From: a virus
Taxonomy: Duplodnaviria > Heunggongvirae > Uroviricota > Caudoviricetes
IMG/VR virus record: IMGVR_UViG_2681813269_000011
DNA length: 8,969 nucleotides
Strand: one strand, 5' to 3'
In this document: positions 1 to 8,969 of the stretch, in pieces
How positions within the stretch are numbered: position 1 is the first letter of the stretch
Layout of the letters: every line of letters begins with the position of its first letter
Notes under the pieces: generated by a model
Told to the model about the DNA's origin: nothing
Seen by the model: only the letters and a program-made list of their open reading frames with translations
Database searches by the model: none
Translations under genes and position numbers: made by a program

Positions 1-1630
1 CCTTCACGCCGTCGGTGACGGACTGGACCTCCACGCTGACCGGATTCCCCTGCCCGTCAACCAGGCTTATCAGCGTGGTGCCGGAGGATGGCAGCGTGAT
101 TTCACGGTCGAGCGTCAGCGTCCGGGTCTGGCTGTTTACCGCCAGCACGCGCCCGCCGATGCGGATACCGGCATAGTCATCATCGCAGATTTCAATGACA
201 TCGCCCGGTACATGACGAAGCCCTTCAGCACCCACGCTGAAATCCACGGTCTGCGTCTCCAGCAGTTCCGTTTTAATCAGCCACAGCCCGGCGCGGTGTG
301 CCTGCCCCCGGCTGGTACAGCCAAAGGCATCCATCTTCGTGACGTTACGACCGTAACGGGCAATGGCCTGCGTGTCCTCCACAAGCTCTGTTGCCGTCTC
401 CCAGCCGTTGTTCGGGTCAATCCAGTTCACCTCAACGGCATTATGGCGGTCTTTCAGGGCGCTGAAACTGTAGCGGAACGGCGCGCCATCATCCGGCATC
501 ACCACATTACTGCGGTTATAGGTCCACACCTTATCCGATGGTCGGTCCTGCACGAACGTCAGCGTCTGCCCGTTCCATACCGGCATACAGCGCATCGCCG
601 AGCAGAAATCACTGAGCACATCCCACGCCTTACGCTGTGTGGTCAGGTACGCATTACAGGTGATGCGCGGCTCCGTGCCGCCAAAACCGTCCGGCACCGA
701 CTGGTCACAGTACTGGCCGATGACATACAGCGCCCATTTATCCACATCTGCCGCACCAAGACGTTTCCCCATGCCGTAGCGCGGATGGGTCAGCATATCC
801 CACAGACACCAGGCCATGTTGTTGCTGTATGCCGGTTTAAACGTCCCGTCCCAGATACCGCTGTATTGCCGCGTCTGCGGGTTATAGTTCGACGGCACCT
901 GCAGAATGCGCCCGCGAAGATGATAATTACGGCTCACCTGCTGGCTGCCGAACTGCTCCGAATCCACCTGCACGCCGACCAGTGCCGTGTTCGGGTAGCA
1001 CTGTTTCACATCGATGATTTCGGTGTATGACGACCAGAGCGTTTTGTTCTGCAGCTGGTCTGTGGTGCTGTCCGGTGTCATCCTGCGCATCCGGATATTA
1101 AACGGGCGCGGCGGCAGGTTATCCACCACCACCGAGGCCAGATACTGCGACGTGGTTTTGCCCTTAATGGTGATGTCTTTTTCTGTCACCCAGCCACCGT
1201 TACGTTGTATCTGAACCAGCAGGCGGACTTCCGACGGATTCCGGTCACCCTTTGAGGTGGTTTCCACCAGTGCCTGCACACCGAAGGTAAAGCGCAGACG
1301 GTCGATGTTTGCAGACGTGATGGTCCGGGTGATCGGCGTGTCGTATTTCACTTCCGTACCCAGCACCGTCTCGGAGCCGGAGGATTCAAATCCCTCCGGC
1401 GGTGACTGCTCCTGCTCACCGGCCCGGAACACCACCGTGACGCCGGATATATTGGTATTCCCCTCACTGTCCAGCACCGGCGTACTGTTCAGCAGCACGC
1501 TTTTTAATCCATCCACCGGACCTTCAACCGGCCCTTCGCTGATGGCATCGATCACACTCAGCAGCTGCGTGGACTTCAGGTTGTCCTTCGCTTCGCGCGG
1601 GGTATGCCCCTTACTGCTGCCTTTACCCAT
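1..1630 (-). CDS. J: Tail-tip host-specificity protein J, copy A, N-terminal 543 codons; 3' end continues beyond the left window edge
   Basis: ATG at 1628-1630 (minus strand) with GGAG 8 nt upstream (ctcc at 1639-1642 on plus). Collinear with copy B at offset 2764. I hand-checked this frame from 1031 to position 2 and found no stop. Absent from the ORF track because no stop lies inside the window. Carries allele [11 protein letters not shown] like copy C, not ISTGG like copy B. Confidence 0.85.
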   Translation of the reverse strand, partial: MGKGSSKGHTPREAKDNLKSTQLLSVIDAISEGPVEGPVDGLKSVLLNSTPVLDSEGNTNISGVTVVFRAGEQEQSPPEGFESSGSETVLGTEVKYDTPITRTITSANIDRLRFTFGVQALVETTSKGDRNPSEVRLLVQIQRNGGWVTEKDITIKGKTTSQYLASVVVDNLPPRPFNIRMRRMTPDSTTDQLQNKTLWSSYTEIIDVKQCYPNTALVGVQVDSEQFGSQQVSRNYHLRGRILQVPSNYNPQTRQYSGIWDGTFKPAYSNNMAWCLWDMLTHPRYGMGKRLGAADVDKWALYVIGQYCDQSVPDGFGGTEPRITCNAYLTTQRKAWDVLSDFCSAMRCMPVWNGQTLTFVQDRPSDKVWTYNRSNVVMPDDGAPFRYSFSALKDRHNAVEVNWIDPNNGWETATELVEDTQAIARYGRNVTKMDAFGCTSRGQAHRAGLWLIKTELLETQTVDFSVGAEGLRHVPGDVIEICDDDYAGIRIGGRVLAVNSQTRTLTLDREITLPSSGTTLISLVDGQGNPVSVEVQSVTDGVK

Positions 1631-1640
1631 TCGTCATGCT

Positions 1641-1672
1641 CCATAAACGACAAAACCGCCCGGAGGCGGTTT
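1641..1672 (-). terminator. Terminator-like hairpin in I-J intergenic region (copy A): stem aaaccgcc/ggcggttt, 4-nt loop, then TTTTGTCGTTT on minus strand
   Basis: Stem 1653-1660 pairs with 1665-1672; the minus-strand transcript would read AAACCGCC-UCCG-GGCGGUUU-UGUCGUUUAUGG, running into the J Shine-Dalgarno. Short GC core (5 bp), so terminator function is uncertain. Confidence 0.3.
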
Positions 1673-1690
1673 CACATAAAACATTTTGCA

Positions 1691-1705
1691 TCAGCGACCA
1701 ATCAC
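1691..1705 (-). pseudogene. I: Orphan remnant of I: last 4 codons plus stop (VIGR*), cut off at breakpoint 1705/1706
   Basis: Minus strand reads gtg att ggt cgc tga, identical to the end of intact I (4455-4469); upstream sequence (1706 onward) is unrelated in this orientation. Confidence 0.6.
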
Positions 1706-1914
1706 TGGCACCGAAAGCCAGAACTCCCCGTACACAGACAACGGATAACGGCAAACAGAACACCTATTTCTCCTCACTGGATAACATGGTTGCCCAGGGC
1801 AATGTTCTGCCGGTTCTGTACGGTGAAATGCGCGTGGGGTCACGCGTGGTTTCTCAGGAGATCAGCACGGCAGACGAAGGGGACGGTGGTCAGGTTGTGG
1901 TGATTGGTCGCTGA
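1706..1914 (+). pseudogene. I: I 3' fragment (about the last 69 codons) in inverted, plus-strand orientation
   Basis: Plus-strand translation ends ...APKARTPRTQTTDNGKQNTYFSSLDNMVAQGNVLPVLYGEMRVGSRVVSQEISTADEGDGGQVVVIGR*, the C-terminus of the intact I at 4455-4663 on the opposite strand. Lacks the I start; ORF-track ORF 1636-1914 begins at an ATG in antisense intergenic DNA. Confidence 0.85.
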
Positions 1915-1932
1915 TGCAAAATGTTTTATGTG

Positions 1933-1964
1933 AAACCGCCTCCGGGCGGTTTTGTCGTTTATGG
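1933..1964 (+). terminator. Inverted copy of the I-J intergenic hairpin, now on the plus strand upstream of the plus-strand J fragment
   Basis: aaaccgcc (1933-1940), loop tccg, ggcggttt (1945-1952), then tgtcgtttatgg; mirror image of 1641-1672. Confidence 0.3.
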
Positions 1965-1974
1965 AGCATGACGA

Positions 1975-2574
1975 ATGGGTAAAGGCAGCAGTAAGGGGCA
2001 TACCCCGCGCGAAGCGAAGGACAACCTGAAGTCCACGCAGCTGCTGAGTGTGATCGATGCCATCAGCGAAGGGCCGGTTGAAGGTCCGGTGGATGGATTA
2101 AAAAGCGTGCTGCTGAACAGTACGCCGGTGCTGGACAGTGAGGGGAATACCAATATATCCGGCGTCACGGTGGTGTTCCGGGCCGGTGAGCAGGAGCAGT
2201 CACCGCCGGAGGGATTTGAATCCTCCGGCTCCGAGACGGTGCTGGGTACGGAAGTGAAATACGACACGCCGATCACCCGGACCATCACGTCTGCAAACAT
2301 CGACCGTCTGCGCTTTACCTTCGGTGTGCAGGCACTGGTGGAAACCACCTCAAAGGGTGACCGGAATCCGTCGGAAGTCCGCCTGCTGGTTCAGATACAA
2401 CGTAACGGTGGCTGGGTGACAGAAAAAGACATCACCATTAAGGGCAAAACCACGTCGCAGTATCTGGCCTCGGTGGTGGTGGATAACCTGCCGCCGCGAC
2501 CGTTCAATATCCGGATGCGCAGGATGACACCGGACAGCACCACAGACCAGCTGCAGAACAAAACGCTCTGGTCG
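1975..2574 (+). pseudogene. J: J 5' fragment, codons 1-200, on the plus strand (inverted duplicate); ORF runs on into antisense J sequence to 2940
   Basis: ATG at 1975 with GGAG at 1963-1966; translation MGKGSSKGHTPREAKDNLKSTQLL...[11 protein letters not shown] is identical to the copy B N-terminus for 200 residues, then becomes antisense-derived sequence ([10 protein letters not shown]...). Confidence 0.85.
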
Positions 2575-4394
2575 CCGTCAAAGTGCGCCCCGTTATCCAC
2601 GATGGCTTCTTTTCCCGGTACATGCTGCACGGCAGTGATGGCATACGTGCCGTCATCGTTCTCACGGATACTCACGCAGCGGAACAGGCGCTGGCGCAGC
2701 GTCGGCAGCTTCAGCCCCCACACGCTGTATTCTGCAACGCCGTCAGGAACCCGGCTCACTTTCACCTTCACGCCGTCGGTGACGGACTGGACCTCCACGC
2801 TGACCGGATTGCCACTTCCGTCAACCAGGCTTATCAGCGTGGTACCGGAGGATGGCAGCGTGATTTCACGGTCGAGCGTCAGCGTCCGGGTCTGGCTGTT
2901 CACCGCCAGTACGCGACCACCGGTGCTGATACCGGCATAATCATCATCGCAGATTTCAATGACATCACCCGGTACATGGCGAAGCCCTTCTGCGCCCACG
3001 CTGAAGTCCACGGTCTGCGTTTCCAGCAGTTCTGTTTTAATCAGCCACAGCCCGGCGCGGTGTGCCTGCCCCCGGCTGGTACAGCCAAAGGCATCCATCT
3101 TCGTGACATTACGACCGTAACGGGCAATGGCCTGCGTATCCTCCACAAGCTCTGTCGCCGTCTCCCAGCCGTTATCTGGGTCAATCCAGTTCACCTCAAC
3201 GGCATTATGGCGGTCCTTCAGGGCGCTGAAGCTGTAGCGGAATGGTGCGCCATCATCCGGCATCACCACATTACTGCGGTTATAGGTCCACACCTTATCC
3301 GATGGTCGGTCCTGCACGAACGTCAGCGTCTGCCCGTTCCATACCGGCATACAGCGCATCGCCGAGCAGAAATCACTGAGCACATCCCACGCCTTGCGCT
3401 GTGTGGTCAGCCAGGCATTACAGGTGATGCGCGGCTCCGTGCTGCCAAAGCCGTCCGGCACCGACTGGTCACAGTACTGGCCGATGACATACAGCGCCCA
3501 TTTATCCACATCTGCCGCACCAAGACGTTTCCCCATGCCGTAGCGCGGATGAGTGAGCATGTCCCACAGACACCAGGCCATGTTGTTGCTGTATGCCGGT
3601 TTTAACGTTCCGTCCCAGATACCGCTGTATTGCCGCGTCTGCGGGTTATAGTTCGACGGCACCTGCAGAATGCGCCCGCGAAGATGATAATTACGGCTCA
3701 CCTGCTGGCTGCCGAACTGCTCCGAATCCACCTGCACGCCGACCAGTGCCGTGTTCGGGTAGCACTGTTTCACATCGATGATTTCGGTGTATGACGACCA
3801 GAGCGTTTTGTTCTGCAGCTGGTCTGTGGTGCTGTCCGGTGTCATCCTGCGCATCCGGATATTGAACGGTCGCGGCGGCAGGTTATCCACCACCACCGAG
3901 GCCAGATACTGCGACGTGGTTTTGCCCTTAATGGTGATGTCTTTTTCTGTCACCCAGCCACCGTTACGTTGTATCTGAACCAGCAGGCGGACTTCCGACG
4001 GATTCCGGTCACCCTTTGAGGTGGTTTCCACCAGTGCCTGCACACCGAAGGTAAAGCGCAGACGGTCGATGTTTGCAGACGTGATGGTCCGGGTGATCGG
4101 CGTGTCGTATTTCACTTCCGTACCCAGCACCGTCTCGGAGCCGGAGGATTCAAATCCCTCCGGCGGTGACTGCTCCTGCTCACCGGCCCGGAACACCACC
4201 GTGACGCCGGATATATTGGTATTCCCCTCACTGTCCAGCACCGGCGTACTGTTCAGCAGCACGCTTTTTAATCCATCCACCGGACCTTCAACCGGCCCTT
4301 CGCTGATGGCATCGATCACACTCAGCAGCTGCGTGGACTTCAGGTTGTCCTTCGCTTCGCGCGGGGTATGCCCCTTACTGCTGCCTTTACCCAT
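2391..4394 (-). CDS. J: Tail-tip host-specificity protein J, copy B, disrupted: authentic J residues 1-610 followed by 57 antisense-derived residues
   Basis: 667-aa ORF starting MGKGSSKGHTPREAKDNLKSTQLLSVIDAISEGP, which is the lambda gpJ N-terminus as I recall it. Matches J through ...GAHFDGDQS, then reads VLFCSWSVV..., which equals antisense ORF 1014-1214. Breakpoint within 2564-2574. Native RBS GGAG 8 nt upstream (ctcc at 4403-4406). Confidence 0.9.
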   Translation of the reverse strand: MGKGSSKGHTPREAKDNLKSTQLLSVIDAISEGPVEGPVDGLKSVLLNSTPVLDSEGNTNISGVTVVFRAGEQEQSPPEGFESSGSETVLGTEVKYDTPITRTITSANIDRLRFTFGVQALVETTSKGDRNPSEVRLLVQIQRNGGWVTEKDITIKGKTTSQYLASVVVDNLPPRPFNIRMRRMTPDSTTDQLQNKTLWSSYTEIIDVKQCYPNTALVGVQVDSEQFGSQQVSRNYHLRGRILQVPSNYNPQTRQYSGIWDGTLKPAYSNNMAWCLWDMLTHPRYGMGKRLGAADVDKWALYVIGQYCDQSVPDGFGSTEPRITCNAWLTTQRKAWDVLSDFCSAMRCMPVWNGQTLTFVQDRPSDKVWTYNRSNVVMPDDGAPFRYSFSALKDRHNAVEVNWIDPDNGWETATELVEDTQAIARYGRNVTKMDAFGCTSRGQAHRAGLWLIKTELLETQTVDFSVGAEGLRHVPGDVIEICDDDYAGISTGGRVLAVNSQTRTLTLDREITLPSSGTTLISLVDGSGNPVSVEVQSVTDGVKVKVSRVPDGVAEYSVWGLKLPTLRQRLFRCVSIRENDDGTYAITAVQHVPGKEAIVDNGAHFDGDQSVLFCSWSVVLSGVILRIRILNGRGGRLSTTTEARYCDVVLPLMVMSFSVTQPPLRCI

Positions 4395-4404
4395 TCGTCA
4401 TGCT

Positions 4405-4436
4405 CCATAAACGACAAAACCGCCCGGAGGCGGTTT
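4405..4436 (-). terminator. Terminator-like hairpin in the native I-J intergenic region, followed by U-rich tract overlapping the J RBS
   Basis: Stem 4417-4424 pairs with 4429-4436, loop cgga; on the minus strand this is followed by TTTTGTCGTTTATGG. Same element as 1641-1672. Confidence 0.3.
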
Positions 4437-4454
4437 CACATAAAACATTTTGCA

Positions 4455-5126
4455 TCAGCGACCAATCACCACAACCTGACCACCGTCCCCTTCGTCTGCC
4501 GTGCTGATCTCCTGAGAAACCACGCGTGACCCCACGCGCATTTCACCGTACAGAACCGGCAGAACATTGCCCTGGGCAACCATGTTATCCAGTGAGGAGA
4601 AATAGGTGTTCTGTTTGCCGTTATCCGTTGTCTGTGTACGGGGAGTTCTGGCTTTCGGTGCCAGCATCTGCGCCACACCACCGAGCACCATACTGGCACC
4701 GAGAGAAAACAGGATGCCGGTCATACCACCGGTCCCAATGGCTGCCCCCCATGCTGCAAGGGTGGCTCCGGCGGTAAAGAATGATCCGGCAATGGCGGCA
4801 GCCCCCAGGACAATCTGGAATACGCCACCTGACTTGGCCCCGGCGACTCTGGGAACAATATGAATCACAGCGCCATCAGGCAGAGTCTCATGTAACTGCG
4901 CCGTTAACCCGGACGTGCTGACGTCCCGCCCGGCAATCCGTACCTGATACCAGCCGTCGCTCAGTTTCTGACGAAACGCCGGGAGCTGTGTGGCCAGTGC
5001 CCGGATGGCTTCAGCCCCCGTTTTCACACGAAGGTCGATGCGGCGACCAAATCGTTGTAAATCCCCGTAAAGGCAGATGCGCGCCATGCCCGGTGACGCC
5101 AGAGGGAGTGTGTGCGTCGCTGCCAT
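4455..5126 (-). CDS. I: Tail assembly protein I (gpI-like, 223 aa)
   Basis: Intact 223-aa ORF MAATHTLPLASPGMARICLYGDLQRFGRRIDLRV...GGQVVVIGR matching lambda gpI as recalled, with Gly/Ala-rich hydrophobic central segment. Overlaps the K 3' end by 103 nt and lies 60 nt upstream of J. Confidence 0.95.
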   Translation of the reverse strand: MAATHTLPLASPGMARICLYGDLQRFGRRIDLRVKTGAEAIRALATQLPAFRQKLSDGWYQVRIAGRDVSTSGLTAQLHETLPDGAVIHIVPRVAGAKSGGVFQIVLGAAAIAGSFFTAGATLAAWGAAIGTGGMTGILFSLGASMVLGGVAQMLAPKARTPRTQTTDNGKQNTYFSSLDNMVAQGNVLPVLYGEMRVGSRVVSQEISTADEGDGGQVVVIGR

Positions 5127-5767
5127 TTGTCGGTGTACCTCTCTCGTTTGCTCAGTTGTTCAGGAATATGGTGCAGCAGCTCGCCGTCGCCGCAGTAAAT
5201 TGCGGCGTGATTCGGCACTGATGAACCAAAACAGCACAGCAGCACATCGCCCGGCTGTGCCGCTGACAACGGCACCTGATACAGCCCCGTCGCCTCCAGA
5301 TTATCCAGATAGAGATTCTGGCCGTTACGCCACCAGTCATCCTCACGATAAAAGTCCGGCATCTCAATCCCCGCCAGATGATAAGCATCCCGGAACAGTG
5401 TGTAACAGTCCGTCACACCGTGCTCAAAGCGCCGCCCGGTGAGATGCGGCACACAGCGGAACTTATGAATCGTCCCCCGGCAGACCAGCCACCACGGCAA
5501 ATCACTCTGCACCTGCAGCCGCCGGTCGGCCTCACTCAGCCAGGGCAGACCACCGGGGTGGCTGTGGACCAGCGCCACAATCTCACCCTGCATTTCTGCC
5601 TGCAGCCAGTCTTCCGGCGACATACGGAAATACGCCTCCGGCTCACCGGAGATATTCACGCAGGGAAAATATCTTTCCCCCTCCGGCGTGCTTACCACGA
5701 AGCCGCACGACTCCGCTGGCGCACATCGCCGGGCGTGCGCCAGAATCGCTGATTCTGTCTGTGTCAT
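5024..5767 (-). CDS. K: Tail assembly protein K (gpK-like) with JAMM/MPN and NlpC/P60 signatures
   Basis: 247-aa ORF MTQTESAILAHARRCAPAESCGFVV... with an exact JAMM motif H68-x-H70-x7-S78-x2-D81 (HSHPGGLPWLSEAD) and NlpC/P60-type Cys121 (GVTDCYTLF) and His187 (NHAAIY). Start is 5 nt after the L stop. Confidence 0.93.
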   Translation of the reverse strand: MTQTESAILAHARRCAPAESCGFVVSTPEGERYFPCVNISGEPEAYFRMSPEDWLQAEMQGEIVALVHSHPGGLPWLSEADRRLQVQSDLPWWLVCRGTIHKFRCVPHLTGRRFEHGVTDCYTLFRDAYHLAGIEMPDFYREDDWWRNGQNLYLDNLEATGLYQVPLSAAQPGDVLLCCFGSSVPNHAAIYCGDGELLHHIPEQLSKRERYTDKWQRRTHSLWRHRAWRASAFTGIYNDLVAASTFV

Positions 5768-5772
5768 GGGAT

Positions 5773-6471
5773 TTACTGCGAAAGTTTGTTAATGGAAAGG
5801 AAGCCGCCAAAGTTGCCGACGTTATTGCGGAACTTACAACCGCTCAGGCATTTGCTGCATTTATCCTTCGTGATATCGGACGTTGGCTGGTCATATTCAT
5901 CCGCGACAGCCGGACCGCTATAACCGCACTCGTCACCGCGATAGGTCCAGGTGCAGGTATTGGCCAGCATGATACGTCCCGGAAAAACAGCGCCATCCGT
6001 TTCCGTCGGCGTGGACAGTACAAAGGAGGCACTCACCGCGCTCAGTTCGCTGCACTGCTCAATGCGCCAGCGGCTGATCACCTCCTGCTCCGGATCGGCG
6101 TAACTGTTTCCGTTGACGAAGTTCACCGCATCCAGAAAACGGGCGTAAACCTTACGCCGGACCACCGTTCCGCCGACCAGACTCTGCAGATCTTCCGCCA
6201 TCCCGGTGACCATACCGTACAGGTTAGAAACCGTCAGCGTGGGGCGCGTACTGGTGCCTTTGCCATTCAGTTCAAAACCGCTCCCCTGAATGGGATACGG
6301 CTGATACTGTCGCCCCTGCCAGGTGACCGGCTCACCTTTTTCGTTCTGCTCATTACAGAAAAAATAACGTTCTCCACCGACCTCTGTCAGGTCGATTTCC
6401 CAGAGCACCACGCTGGCCGACTGCTCCGCACGGGTGCATTCATTCAGTGTTTCCTGCCGGATATCCTGCAT
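5773..6471 (-). CDS. L: Tail tip protein L (gpL-like, 232 aa)
   Basis: 232-aa ORF MQDIRQETLNECTRAEQSASVVLWEIDLTEVGGERYFFCNEQNEKGEP... ending in the Cys-rich motif DKCSKCLSGCKF, matching lambda gpL as recalled. ATG overlaps the upstream stop by 1 nt (TGATG); AGGTGG lies 7 nt upstream. Confidence 0.95.
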   Translation of the reverse strand: MQDIRQETLNECTRAEQSASVVLWEIDLTEVGGERYFFCNEQNEKGEPVTWQGRQYQPYPIQGSGFELNGKGTSTRPTLTVSNLYGMVTGMAEDLQSLVGGTVVRRKVYARFLDAVNFVNGNSYADPEQEVISRWRIEQCSELSAVSASFVLSTPTETDGAVFPGRIMLANTCTWTYRGDECGYSGPAVADEYDQPTSDITKDKCSKCLSGCKFRNNVGNFGGFLSINKLSQ

Positions 6472-6516
6472 CAGTTCACCACCTGTTCAAACTCTGCGCT
6501 GAACTCAACACGCAGC
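6471..6516 (-). pseudogene. M: M 3' remnant, last ~15 codons only ([14 protein letters not shown])
   Basis: Minus-strand frame ending at TGA (6471-6473) reads ...[14 protein letters not shown], which I recall as the C-terminus of lambda gpM (109 aa). Homology stops abruptly at about 6516/6517, where J-derived sequence begins in another frame. Boundary is +/-3 nt because it is inferred from the protein. Confidence 0.6.
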
Positions 6517-8969
6517 AATGGTGGGGGCCGTCAGGCGTTTCAGGAACACGTCGTTCATGAATATCTGATCGCCCTGACCAACAAACATCGGTTTTGTGTT
6601 GCCATTCGCAGGATTAACCATCGCAATCCTGTCCGCCGCCAGCAGCACCTGACTCTGCATGCCGTCAGGGGTGTTCTCAATACCGGCACCAATACCCGCG
6701 ATATAAAGGCGTCCGTCCTGCATCTGCTGCAGCTTCACAGCCCACATGCTGTTCAGGTTATTATTTGTATCAACCTGAACCTTCTGTATCTGCTGAATTG
6801 CCGCACTCTGGTCTTCCAGTTTCTTATTGACGGTCTGCGTGATTTCATTGCTGACATCCGTAATGGACGTCCTGATTTCAGCCAGGTCAGGCGCAAGCTG
6901 ACCGTTATCAATCTGCGTCCACAGCTCCTGAGCCAGATGGGTTTTCCCTATCTCGCCTTTGAAAAAATCCAGATAGCCGGATGCATCATCACTCGGCTGA
7001 CCAACAGCCTCCACGAATGCCGATTTGCCAACGGTGTTCACACTGCGAACGTAAAAATAATAATCATGGCCCGGTTTGATATTGATACTGGCGGCTATCC
7101 AGTACAGCGCCGTGCCAAGATAGCGGGCTGTGGTTTCAACCTGCCTGATATCGGTAATCCGCTTTTCCGAGAACCAGAACTCAAACTGTACCGTCGGGTC
7201 ATAAACGGCAAGATGCGGCGTGGCGGTTATCTGAAAATAGCCCGGCGTCAGCTCAATCCGCGACGGCACTGCAGGTGCGGCAATCCGGAACGATACCGAT
7301 GCCGGATCGCCCTGCTGCCCCCACGCATTTACCGCCCGGACTGTCAGCCTGTAGTTCCCCAGCGCCAGCTGCCTGAAGCGGTATGCGGTTTCCGCCGTCC
7401 GGGCCGTGCTGACCAGCCGCTCACTGCCGTCATCCGCTGCCACGGTCAGGCGAAGCAGGAAACTCACGCCCTTCACCACCTTCGGCGTGTCCCAGCGGGC
7501 CAGTACCTGATACTCCCCGCTGTCTGCGGTGACTTCGGCAGTCAGGTGCTGTACCGCTGGCGGCGTGACACCATTCACCGTGCCGCTCTGGTCGCCGTCA
7601 AAGTGCGCCCCGTTATCCACGATGGCTTCTTTTCCCGGTACATGCTGCACGGCAGTGATGGCATACGTGCCGTCATCGTTCTCACGGATACTCACGCAGC
7701 GGAACAGGCGCTGGCGCAACGTCGGCAACTTCAGCCCCCACACGCTGTATTCTGCAACGCCGTCAGGAACACGGCTCACTTTTACCTTCACGCCGTCGGT
7801 GACGGACTGGACCTCCACGCTGACCGGATTGCCACTTCCGTCAACCAGGCTTATCAGCGTGGTACCGGAGGATGGCAGCGTGATTTCACGGTCGAGCGTC
7901 AGCGTCCGGGTCTGGCTGTTTACCGCCAGCACGCGCCCGCCGATGCGGATACCGGCATAGTCATCATCGCAGATTTCAATGACATCGCCCGGTACATGGC
8001 GAAGCCCTTCAGCACCCACGCTGAAGTCCACGGTCTGCGTTTCCAGCAGTTCTGTTTTAATCAGCCACAGCCCGGCGCGGTGTGCCTGCCCCCGGCTGGT
8101 ACAGCCAAAGGCATCCATCTTCGTGACGTTACGACCGTAACGGGCAATGGCCTGCGTGTCCTCCACAAGCTCTGTTGCCGTCTCCCAGCCGTTGTTCGGG
8201 TCAATCCAGTTCACCTCAACGGCATTATGGCGGTCCTTCAGGGCGCTGAAGCTGTAGCGGAATGGTGCGCCATCATCCGGCATCACCACATTACTGCGGT
8301 TATAGGTCCACACCTTATCCGACGGTCGGTCCTGCACGAACGTCAGCGTCTGCCCGTTCCATACCGGCATACAGCGCATCGCCGAGCAGAAATCACTGAG
8401 CACATCCCACGCCTTACGCTGTGTGGTCAGGTACGCATTACAGGTGATGCGCGGCTCCGTGCCGCCAAATCCGTCCGTCACTGACTGGTCGCAGTACTGG
8501 CCGATGACATACAGCGCCCATTTGTCCACATCTGCCGCACCAAGACGTTTCCCCATGCCGTAGCGCGGATGGGTCAGCATATCCCACAGACACCAGGCCA
8601 TGTTGTTGCTGTATGCCGGTTTAAACGTCCCGTCCCAGATACCGCTGTATTGCCGCGTCTGCGGGTTATAGTTCGACGGCACCTGCAGAATGCGCCCGCG
8701 AAGATGATAATTGCGACTCACCTGCTGGTTACCGAACTGCTCTGAATCCACCTGCACGCCGACCAGCGCCGTGTTCGGGTAGCACTGTTTCACATCGATG
8801 ATTTCGGTGTATGACGACCAGAGCGTTTTGTTCTGCAGCTGGTCTGTGGTGCTGTCCGGTGTCATCCTGCGCATCCGGATATTGAACGGTCGCGGCGGCA
8901 GGTTACCCACCACCACCGAGGCCAGATACTGCGAAGTGGTTTTGCCCTTAATGGTGATGTCTTTTTCCG
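6505..8969 (-). CDS. J: Tail-tip host-specificity protein J, copy C; 5' end beyond the right window edge, 3' end cut at the junction with the M remnant; about codons 150-969
   Basis: Open minus-strand frame from the window edge to the stop at 6505-6507; collinear with copy B at offset 5020 and intact through the region where B is broken (...[27 protein letters not shown]...). Ends ...[15 protein letters not shown] then AAC*, where lambda gpJ as recalled continues TSGGNPPAF. Confidence 0.9.

Follow-up and report, generated by a model that had tools for sequence, protein, structure and literature searches.

The 8,969-bp stretch of DNA analysed here (the window) raises the question of why a fragment of the tail gene J, covering lambda residues ~150–938, stands directly ahead of the final 15 M codons, at the place that belongs to H and the body of M beside the M-L-K-I-J module of phage lambda (NC_001416, 13100–18903). 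The window proved to be the entire contig CXNR01000286.1 of assembly GCA_001256515.1, a fragmented short-read draft of Shigella sonnei, and a literature search found no mention of this accession. The features that meet at the J–M join, which is designated X3, are as follows.

6517..8969, minus strand: segment D, a J fragment (allele D) corresponding to lambda residues ~150–938 (to residue 966 in the 1160-aa J type); it runs off the contig end.
6505..6517, minus strand: join X3; J ends ...ACC ATT and is followed by GCT GCG TGT TGA, so that out-of-frame M DNA adds Ala-Ala-Cys and a stop codon.
6471..6517, minus strand: end of gene M, the last 47 nt (15 codons and the stop codon), identical to lambda 13383–13429 (NC_001416).

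The minus strand at approximately 6471–6530 reads as follows.

...AAA CGC CTG ACG GCC CCC ACC ATT GCT GCG TGT TGA G TTC AGC GCA GAG TTT GAA CAG GTG GTG AAC TGA TG

The open reading frame at 6505..8916 on this strand follows the J frame to ...LKRLTAPTI, continues through the three added residues and terminates at 6505–6507; the same frame stays open as far as the contig end at 8969. With the reverse-complemented window aligned by BLAST to lambda NC_001416 and to the E. coli prophage L005, position 6517 was both the last J-homologous and the first M-homologous base, and the two sides meet bluntly, sharing one T at 6517 that could come from either. An uninterrupted J gene reads ...CCCACCATT and then ACCAGCGG, and an uninterrupted M gene reads ...GGTCAGTAT and then GCTGCGTG; in the window, ...CCCACCATT is joined to GCTGCGTG. 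The natural continuation is CCACCATTACCAGCGG for J and GGTCAGTATGCTGCG for M. Given that each flank of X3 is 99–100% identical to thousands of natural prophage copies, the assignments of the two sides to J and M are not due to chance. The 47 nt derived from M are in a different frame from J, and the M stop codon TGA overlaps the ATG of L by 1 nt at 6471. This overlap is kept; the full 109-codon M frame that would precede L is missing, its start codon and body being absent.

These alignments bear out the initial annotation in several respects. It had described a truncated J fused out of frame to the last ~15 codons of M, which the alignments to lambda and L005 and the stop codon at 6505–6507 confirm; the "AAC" that it placed before this stop stands for the residues Ala-Ala-Cys. 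It had also taken 6471–6516 for the gpM COOH-terminus with a 1-nt overlap with the L start, and the identity to lambda 13383–13429 agrees with this; the J and M assignments likewise hold, with the BLAST alignment placing the junction at 6517. Its further proposal, that the receptor-binding COOH-terminus of J is missing, is correct as to the domain but not as to its extent, as the domain content of the fragment shows.

The J sequence of segment D is 87% identical to residues 150–938 of lambda gpJ. Pfam profiles matched in the fragment at 6508–8967 were PF24801 (partial, cut by the contig end), PF13550, PF24421, PF24489, and PF09327 (positions 1–97 of 139), and segment D thus contains the series of NH2-terminal and central domains of gpJ (FNIII-A_GpJ, Phage-tail_3, Ig_J, Ig_J_second, and Phage_Tail_Tip). 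The cut at X3 follows residue 938 of lambda gpJ and falls inside PF09327, the last third of which is missing; the 194 COOH-terminal residues that are lost, rather than the ~150 proposed, are absent from every J copy in the window. The full-length 1160-aa J of L005 contains the rest of PF09327 as well as PF12421 (Ig_GpJ_C) at residues 1036–1160, and a Pfam profile search found no PF12421, the COOH-terminal receptor-binding domain, in any of the three J copies in the window. With J lacking its receptor-binding domain and the body of M absent, the earlier view that this could not be a functional tail module stands. Judged from their sequences, the J copies in the window are gene fragments of the gpJ family with no functional member among them, and the structure would encode no functional tail tip whether it is an artefact or real.

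Comparison of the window with itself revealed a patchwork of four segments, D, C, B, and A, that are connected by X3 and by two further joins. The remaining features, from X3 toward the contig start, are as follows.

2575–6517, minus strand: segment C, comprising the end of M, then L, K, I, and J residues 1–606.
5773..6471, minus strand: gene L, intact, 232 aa, matching PF05100 over profile positions 1–206 of 206 (E = 3e-101).
5024..5767, minus strand: gene K, intact, 247 aa, with Prok-JAB and NlpC/P60 domains.
4455..5126, minus strand: gene I, intact, a 223-aa open reading frame called as 190 aa, PF06805.
2575..4394, minus strand: J allele C, residues 1–606, followed by X2; the resulting 667-aa open reading frame ends in residues derived from antisense sequence.
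2564..2574: join X2, a fold-back with an 11-nt microhomology, CGCTCTGGTCG, between J codon ~606 on one strand and J codon ~200 on the opposite strand.
1705..2574, plus strand: segment B, an inverted copy, 100% identical, of 3795–4664 (I COOH-terminus and J residues 1–200).
1705: join X1, a fold-back, blunt with one common C; 194 nt of I are skipped.
1..1705, minus strand: segment A, the end of I and J allele A residues 1–543; it runs off the contig start.

All of the window is homologous to a single lambdoid prophage interval of ~5.0 kb (~5,020 bp) that extends from the end of M to J residue 966. Thousands of E. coli genomes, phages, and phage-plasmids carry this ordinary interval, which the window matches in three overlapping pieces. 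The lambda module likewise has a counterpart for each base of the window, with the four segments being 94–98% identical to it; L, K, and I are complete and follow the lambda order, and the J copies show the same Pfam series as lambda as far as they are present. The end of M, L, and the start of K are 99.8–99.9% identical at the DNA level to the prophage copy in K-12-derived strains. Apart from X3 and the missing end of J, the window differs from lambda in that the J gene after I is interrupted at residue 606 by an inverted I-end and J-start, which is followed by a third copy of J.

The self-comparison also showed inverted duplications of 870 nt at 100% identity and of 675 nt with near-exact identity. 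The J sequences in segments A, C, and D represent three distinct alleles that are 96.8–97.6% identical and free of internal stops, with differences that are mostly synonymous. Alleles C and D differ by 44 nt and 9 amino acids, and alleles A and C by 43 nt; segments A and C differ at 40 aligned positions, nearly all of them within 1–1106. The local differences at 46–57 represent a natural allelic codon, DGQGNP versus DGSGNP; errors at the contig end were considered for this site and rejected on account of the natural DG(S/Q)GNP allele. A diversity-generating retroelement was also rejected, given that there is no reverse transcriptase and that the differences, for the most part synonymous, are not specific to adenines.

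None of the three joins was encountered elsewhere. A 241-nt query centred on X3 had matches at 14,722 places, distributed over 4,333 of the 5,426 complete E. coli genomes; no match covers 80% of the query, and the top-ranked ones end at the breakpoint. X1, X2, and X3 were each spanned in none of the 5,426 genomes, with the flanking sequences being carried by 4,296–4,539 of them. A 27-mer and a 21-mer chosen to avoid SNPs, both placed over X3, had no match in 185,579 species-representative genomes, JGI metagenome contigs, or IMG/VR; in a positive control, at least 120 IMG/VR contigs were matched by the M sequence that is natural to this site. At the protein level, among about 15 billion proteins, the 92-aa open reading frame over X1 and the 667-aa open reading frame over X2 were found in this contig only. 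The joins are thus not reproduced in independent genomes or assemblies, for DNA within collections that do not include Shigella genomes and for protein with regard to the X1 and X2 reading frames. The 667-aa product has been deposited as CTD34257.1, annotated as "host specificity protein [Shigella sonnei]". A partial J of S. sonnei, P0010, was considered as a relative of the X2 product and rejected, as it is truncated at residue 599 and belongs to a different allele.

We consider it likely that X3 is a false join and the draft contig a chimera, produced when multi-copy prophage repeats were scaffolded greedily and the gaps between them filled. This reading is favoured because the window is a whole 9-kb contig of a fragmented draft, because it contains two more joins, both fold-backs, as well as an 870-nt duplicate, and because the joins are unique. 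Three non-homologous joins occur within 9 kb, each of them inside multi-copy repeats, and the same sequence is reused, in the 870-nt inverted duplicate and in three J copies at ~97% identity. Given that repeats of this length in one contig do not form a simple unambiguous path through an assembly graph, heuristics for repeat resolution must be the source. The intact L, K, and I genes and the stop-free J copies, with their mostly synonymous differences, look like functional prophage genes stitched together, not like a decaying remnant.

From the organism and the accession series, we infer that the contig came from the Sanger high-throughput pipeline, in which Velvet is followed by SSPACE and GapFiller (PMC5320598); the supplement to that paper contains S. 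sonnei assemblies whose accession prefixes are neighbours of this one, CXFG, CXFH, CXOG, and CWWN among them. The S. sonnei assemblies described there (n = 299) averaged 405 contigs. In the pipeline, the improvement step is confined to reads that fail to map as proper pairs, and its evidence thresholds are reduced stepwise, down to five read pairs; the authors caution that greedy tools such as those of the SSPACE and GapFiller steps may yield false joins, and they counted 4–10 misassemblies in each of their test genomes (PMC5320598).

From the anatomy of the contig, the uniqueness of its joins, its provenance, and the intactness of its pieces, we infer how the artefact may have arisen. Several lambda-like prophages would be present in the isolate, with M-L-K-I-J tail-tip modules ~97–100% alike that short reads would be unable to resolve. 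The assembler, together with greedy scaffolding and gap closing, would then have combined pieces from different copies, using some pieces twice and in each orientation, and a small number of chimeric fragments in the library probably gave this process its start. The truncated J protein, and a tail module of this kind, would accordingly be nonexistent in the cell, and the parent prophages would most likely have the ordinary H-M-L-K-I-J order.

The chief argument against this reading is that mis-traversal of the assembly graph alone cannot create such joins, because the overlaps amount to only 1 nt at X3 and X1 and 11 nt at X2, far below the k-mers used in assembly. With overlaps so small, the junction sequences must come either from some reads or from gap closing, which leaves room for a real molecule. 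The window shares with repeat-induced misassembly in the pipeline of PMC5320598 a small contig in a fragmented draft, multi-copy prophage sequence, reused segments at 100% identity, and unique joins; it differs in that typical misjoins lie within shared sequence, whereas the joins here are blunt or have an 11-nt microhomology and therefore require chimeric reads or a gap-closing error rather than a simple repeat collapse. Either source is plausible, since an improvement step that takes only reads not in proper pairs, at low thresholds, fits it (PMC5320598).

The significance of a false join would lie mainly in quality control of the annotation of draft contigs. The entries CTD34257.1 and CTD34248.1 ("tail assembly protein I") of CXNR01000286.1 are chimeric open reading frames, and they should not be read as support for J variants that are truncated, for new tail architectures, or for decay of S. 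sonnei prophages. The finding itself is ordinary whether it reflects a chimera or a real rearrangement.

The most serious rival is a genuine illegitimate rearrangement of prophage tail genes specific to this isolate, which we regard as possible but unlikely as an account of X3. The initial annotation had allowed for a deletion or illegitimate join in a defective prophage as well as for a chimeric contig; the latter is now favoured, and a simple deletion inside one prophage is impossible because J lies downstream of M. To arise, X3 requires either a duplication-type join, head to tail, or a deletion that reaches from one prophage into a neighbouring or tandem one. One genuine route would accordingly be a deletion that connects J of one lambdoid prophage to M of a neighbour in the same orientation, and another a head-to-tail duplication join; in a full version, the forward-inverted-forward order of C, B, and A would reflect an event of the tandem-inversion-duplication type, with template switching at short inverted microhomologies. 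The joins, which are blunt or microhomology-mediated (1, 11, and 1 nt), are of the kind that end joining or template switching leaves behind, and given their nature the junction sequence was probably present in some reads. Segments D and C also carry different alleles, as expected from the joining of two prophages.

Real deletions in this module are found in finished E. coli genomes, namely a K::J fusion in UCPROB-002 and an I::J fusion in FDAARGOS_1077. Like X3, these are illegitimate joins by which J and tail genes next to it are truncated in defective prophages. They are, however, single, simple collinear deletions that keep the COOH-terminus of J, whereas the J-to-M join of the window loses it, and the window breaks gene order and contains two fold-backs within 5 kb.

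Tandem inversion duplication, or inverted triplication, by template switching has been described in Salmonella. The window resembles such events in its forward-inverted-forward topology and in the short microhomology at one inverted join; it differs from them in that the third copy is another allele than the first, X1 has no useful microhomology, and there is no sign of selection for amplification. With the allele of copy A differing from that of copy C, C-B-A is no simple duplication product. An inverted repeat of 675 bp with a 194-bp spacer, as in the window, would be poorly tolerated in enterobacteria. All three joins are moreover singletons, there is no reason why non-homologous events should cluster where assembly is hardest, and no piece shows any other decay in the form of stops, frameshifts, or IS elements.

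That the contig is correct throughout, recording a very recent inter-prophage J-to-M join in one S. sonnei isolate together with an inverted triplication of the I–J boundary by template switching at the 11-nt inverted microhomology, appears to us improbable, and somewhat more so than a genuine origin of X3 taken by itself. If true, the contig would have caught an event of the tandem-inversion-duplication type as it occurs naturally in prophage tail genes. A real X3 would have little biological consequence, the fused J being a dead, receptor-blind fragment and one more prophage remnant.

Alternatively, the assembler may have faithfully reproduced a physical chimeric DNA molecule that was formed by fold-back or ligation during library preparation. 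This explanation overlaps with that of a false join in a chimeric contig but has the error arise in the library and not in the software; by itself we judge it very improbable. Fold-back joins resemble known library fold-back artefacts, and the window has two, one with an 11-nt inverted microhomology. The improvement step of the likely pipeline would also enrich chimeras, in that it takes up only reads outside proper pairs (PMC5320598). Such molecules are individually rare, however, and three would be needed in one contig.

That J of this subfamily ends naturally at ...TAPTI, as a short variant or through a programmed gene switch at the tail tip, can for practical purposes be dismissed: all 36 natural J genes checked that contain RLTAPTI continue with TSGG(N/S)PP, homology in 120 viral contigs is unbroken through both breakpoints, the cut at X3 sits inside PF09327 (1–97 of 139), the window contains neither an invertase nor a recombination site, and its inverted segment is a duplicate, not an inversion. 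The natural ending that the initial annotation had kept in view is thus not borne out, and in 32 of these 36 genes the protein extends for 193–199 more residues. An invertible segment of the Gin/Cin/Pin type is likewise not indicated, there being no recombinase open reading frame in the window. Among the matches listed for 120 IMG/VR lambdoid loci, homology passes straight through the M breakpoint, with 104 of 122 alignments beginning 600 nt upstream; the alignments that reach the J breakpoint extend, with a single exception, at least 125 nt past it. We therefore rejected natural mosaic boundaries of lambdoid phages as an explanation of the breakpoints, given that homology continues through both. 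One match that does end at the breakpoint, in NZ_CP019281.1, a "plasmid" from a pig isolate, proved to belong to a normal phage record, rich in errors, whose J is full length.

The J gene is represented in the window by three distinct alleles that are 96.8–97.6% identical to one another:

1–1630, minus strand, J allele A
2575–4394, minus strand, J allele C
6517–8969, minus strand, J allele D

The differences among these alleles are mostly synonymous and stops are absent, a pattern which implies that the isolate carries several lambdoid prophages, either intact or recently so. Codon 527 of J is variable: S or Q occurs in the window, and a different S. sonnei J has E. Identity to lambda is only ~94–97% for the J copies, whereas positions 5700–6517 (the end of M, L, and the start of K) show 99.8–99.9% identity with a prophage copy in the K-12–derived strains J53, NCM3722, AG100, and C3026. 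Mosaicism of this sort is usual in lambdoid tail modules.

A perfect inverted duplication of 870 nt (1705–2574 versus 3795–4664) contains the end of I and the first 200 codons of J, and its join at 2564–2574 runs through an 11-nt microhomology, CGCTCTGGTCG. The product of this join is CTD34257.1, a 667-aa "host specificity protein" whose COOH-terminal ~60 residues are a translation of J antisense. Antisense sequence also provides residues 1 to ~23 of CTD34248.1, which crosses the fold-back join at 1705; the remainder is the COOH-terminus of I, and its protein cluster has no other member. Plus-strand ORFs include the following:

1636–1914, plus strand, 92 aa, annotated "Tail assembly protein I" (CTD34248.1)
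5761–8484, plus strand, 907 aa, antisense to L/J genes
2583–3605, plus strand, 340 aa, antisense to L/J genes
212–1030, plus strand, 272 aa, antisense to L/J genes, called as a gene in the sequence collection

The 907-, 340-, and 272-aa ORFs, all very long, yielded no Pfam matches and are shadow ORFs of the GC-rich coding strand.

Genuine cases of tail-tip module decay are found in lambdoid prophages of finished E. coli genomes, each as a fusion generated by collinear deletion:

L001 6708–9155, K-to-J fusion, UCPROB-002 prophage locus
L127 4491–5842, I-to-J fusion, FDAARGOS_1077 prophage locus
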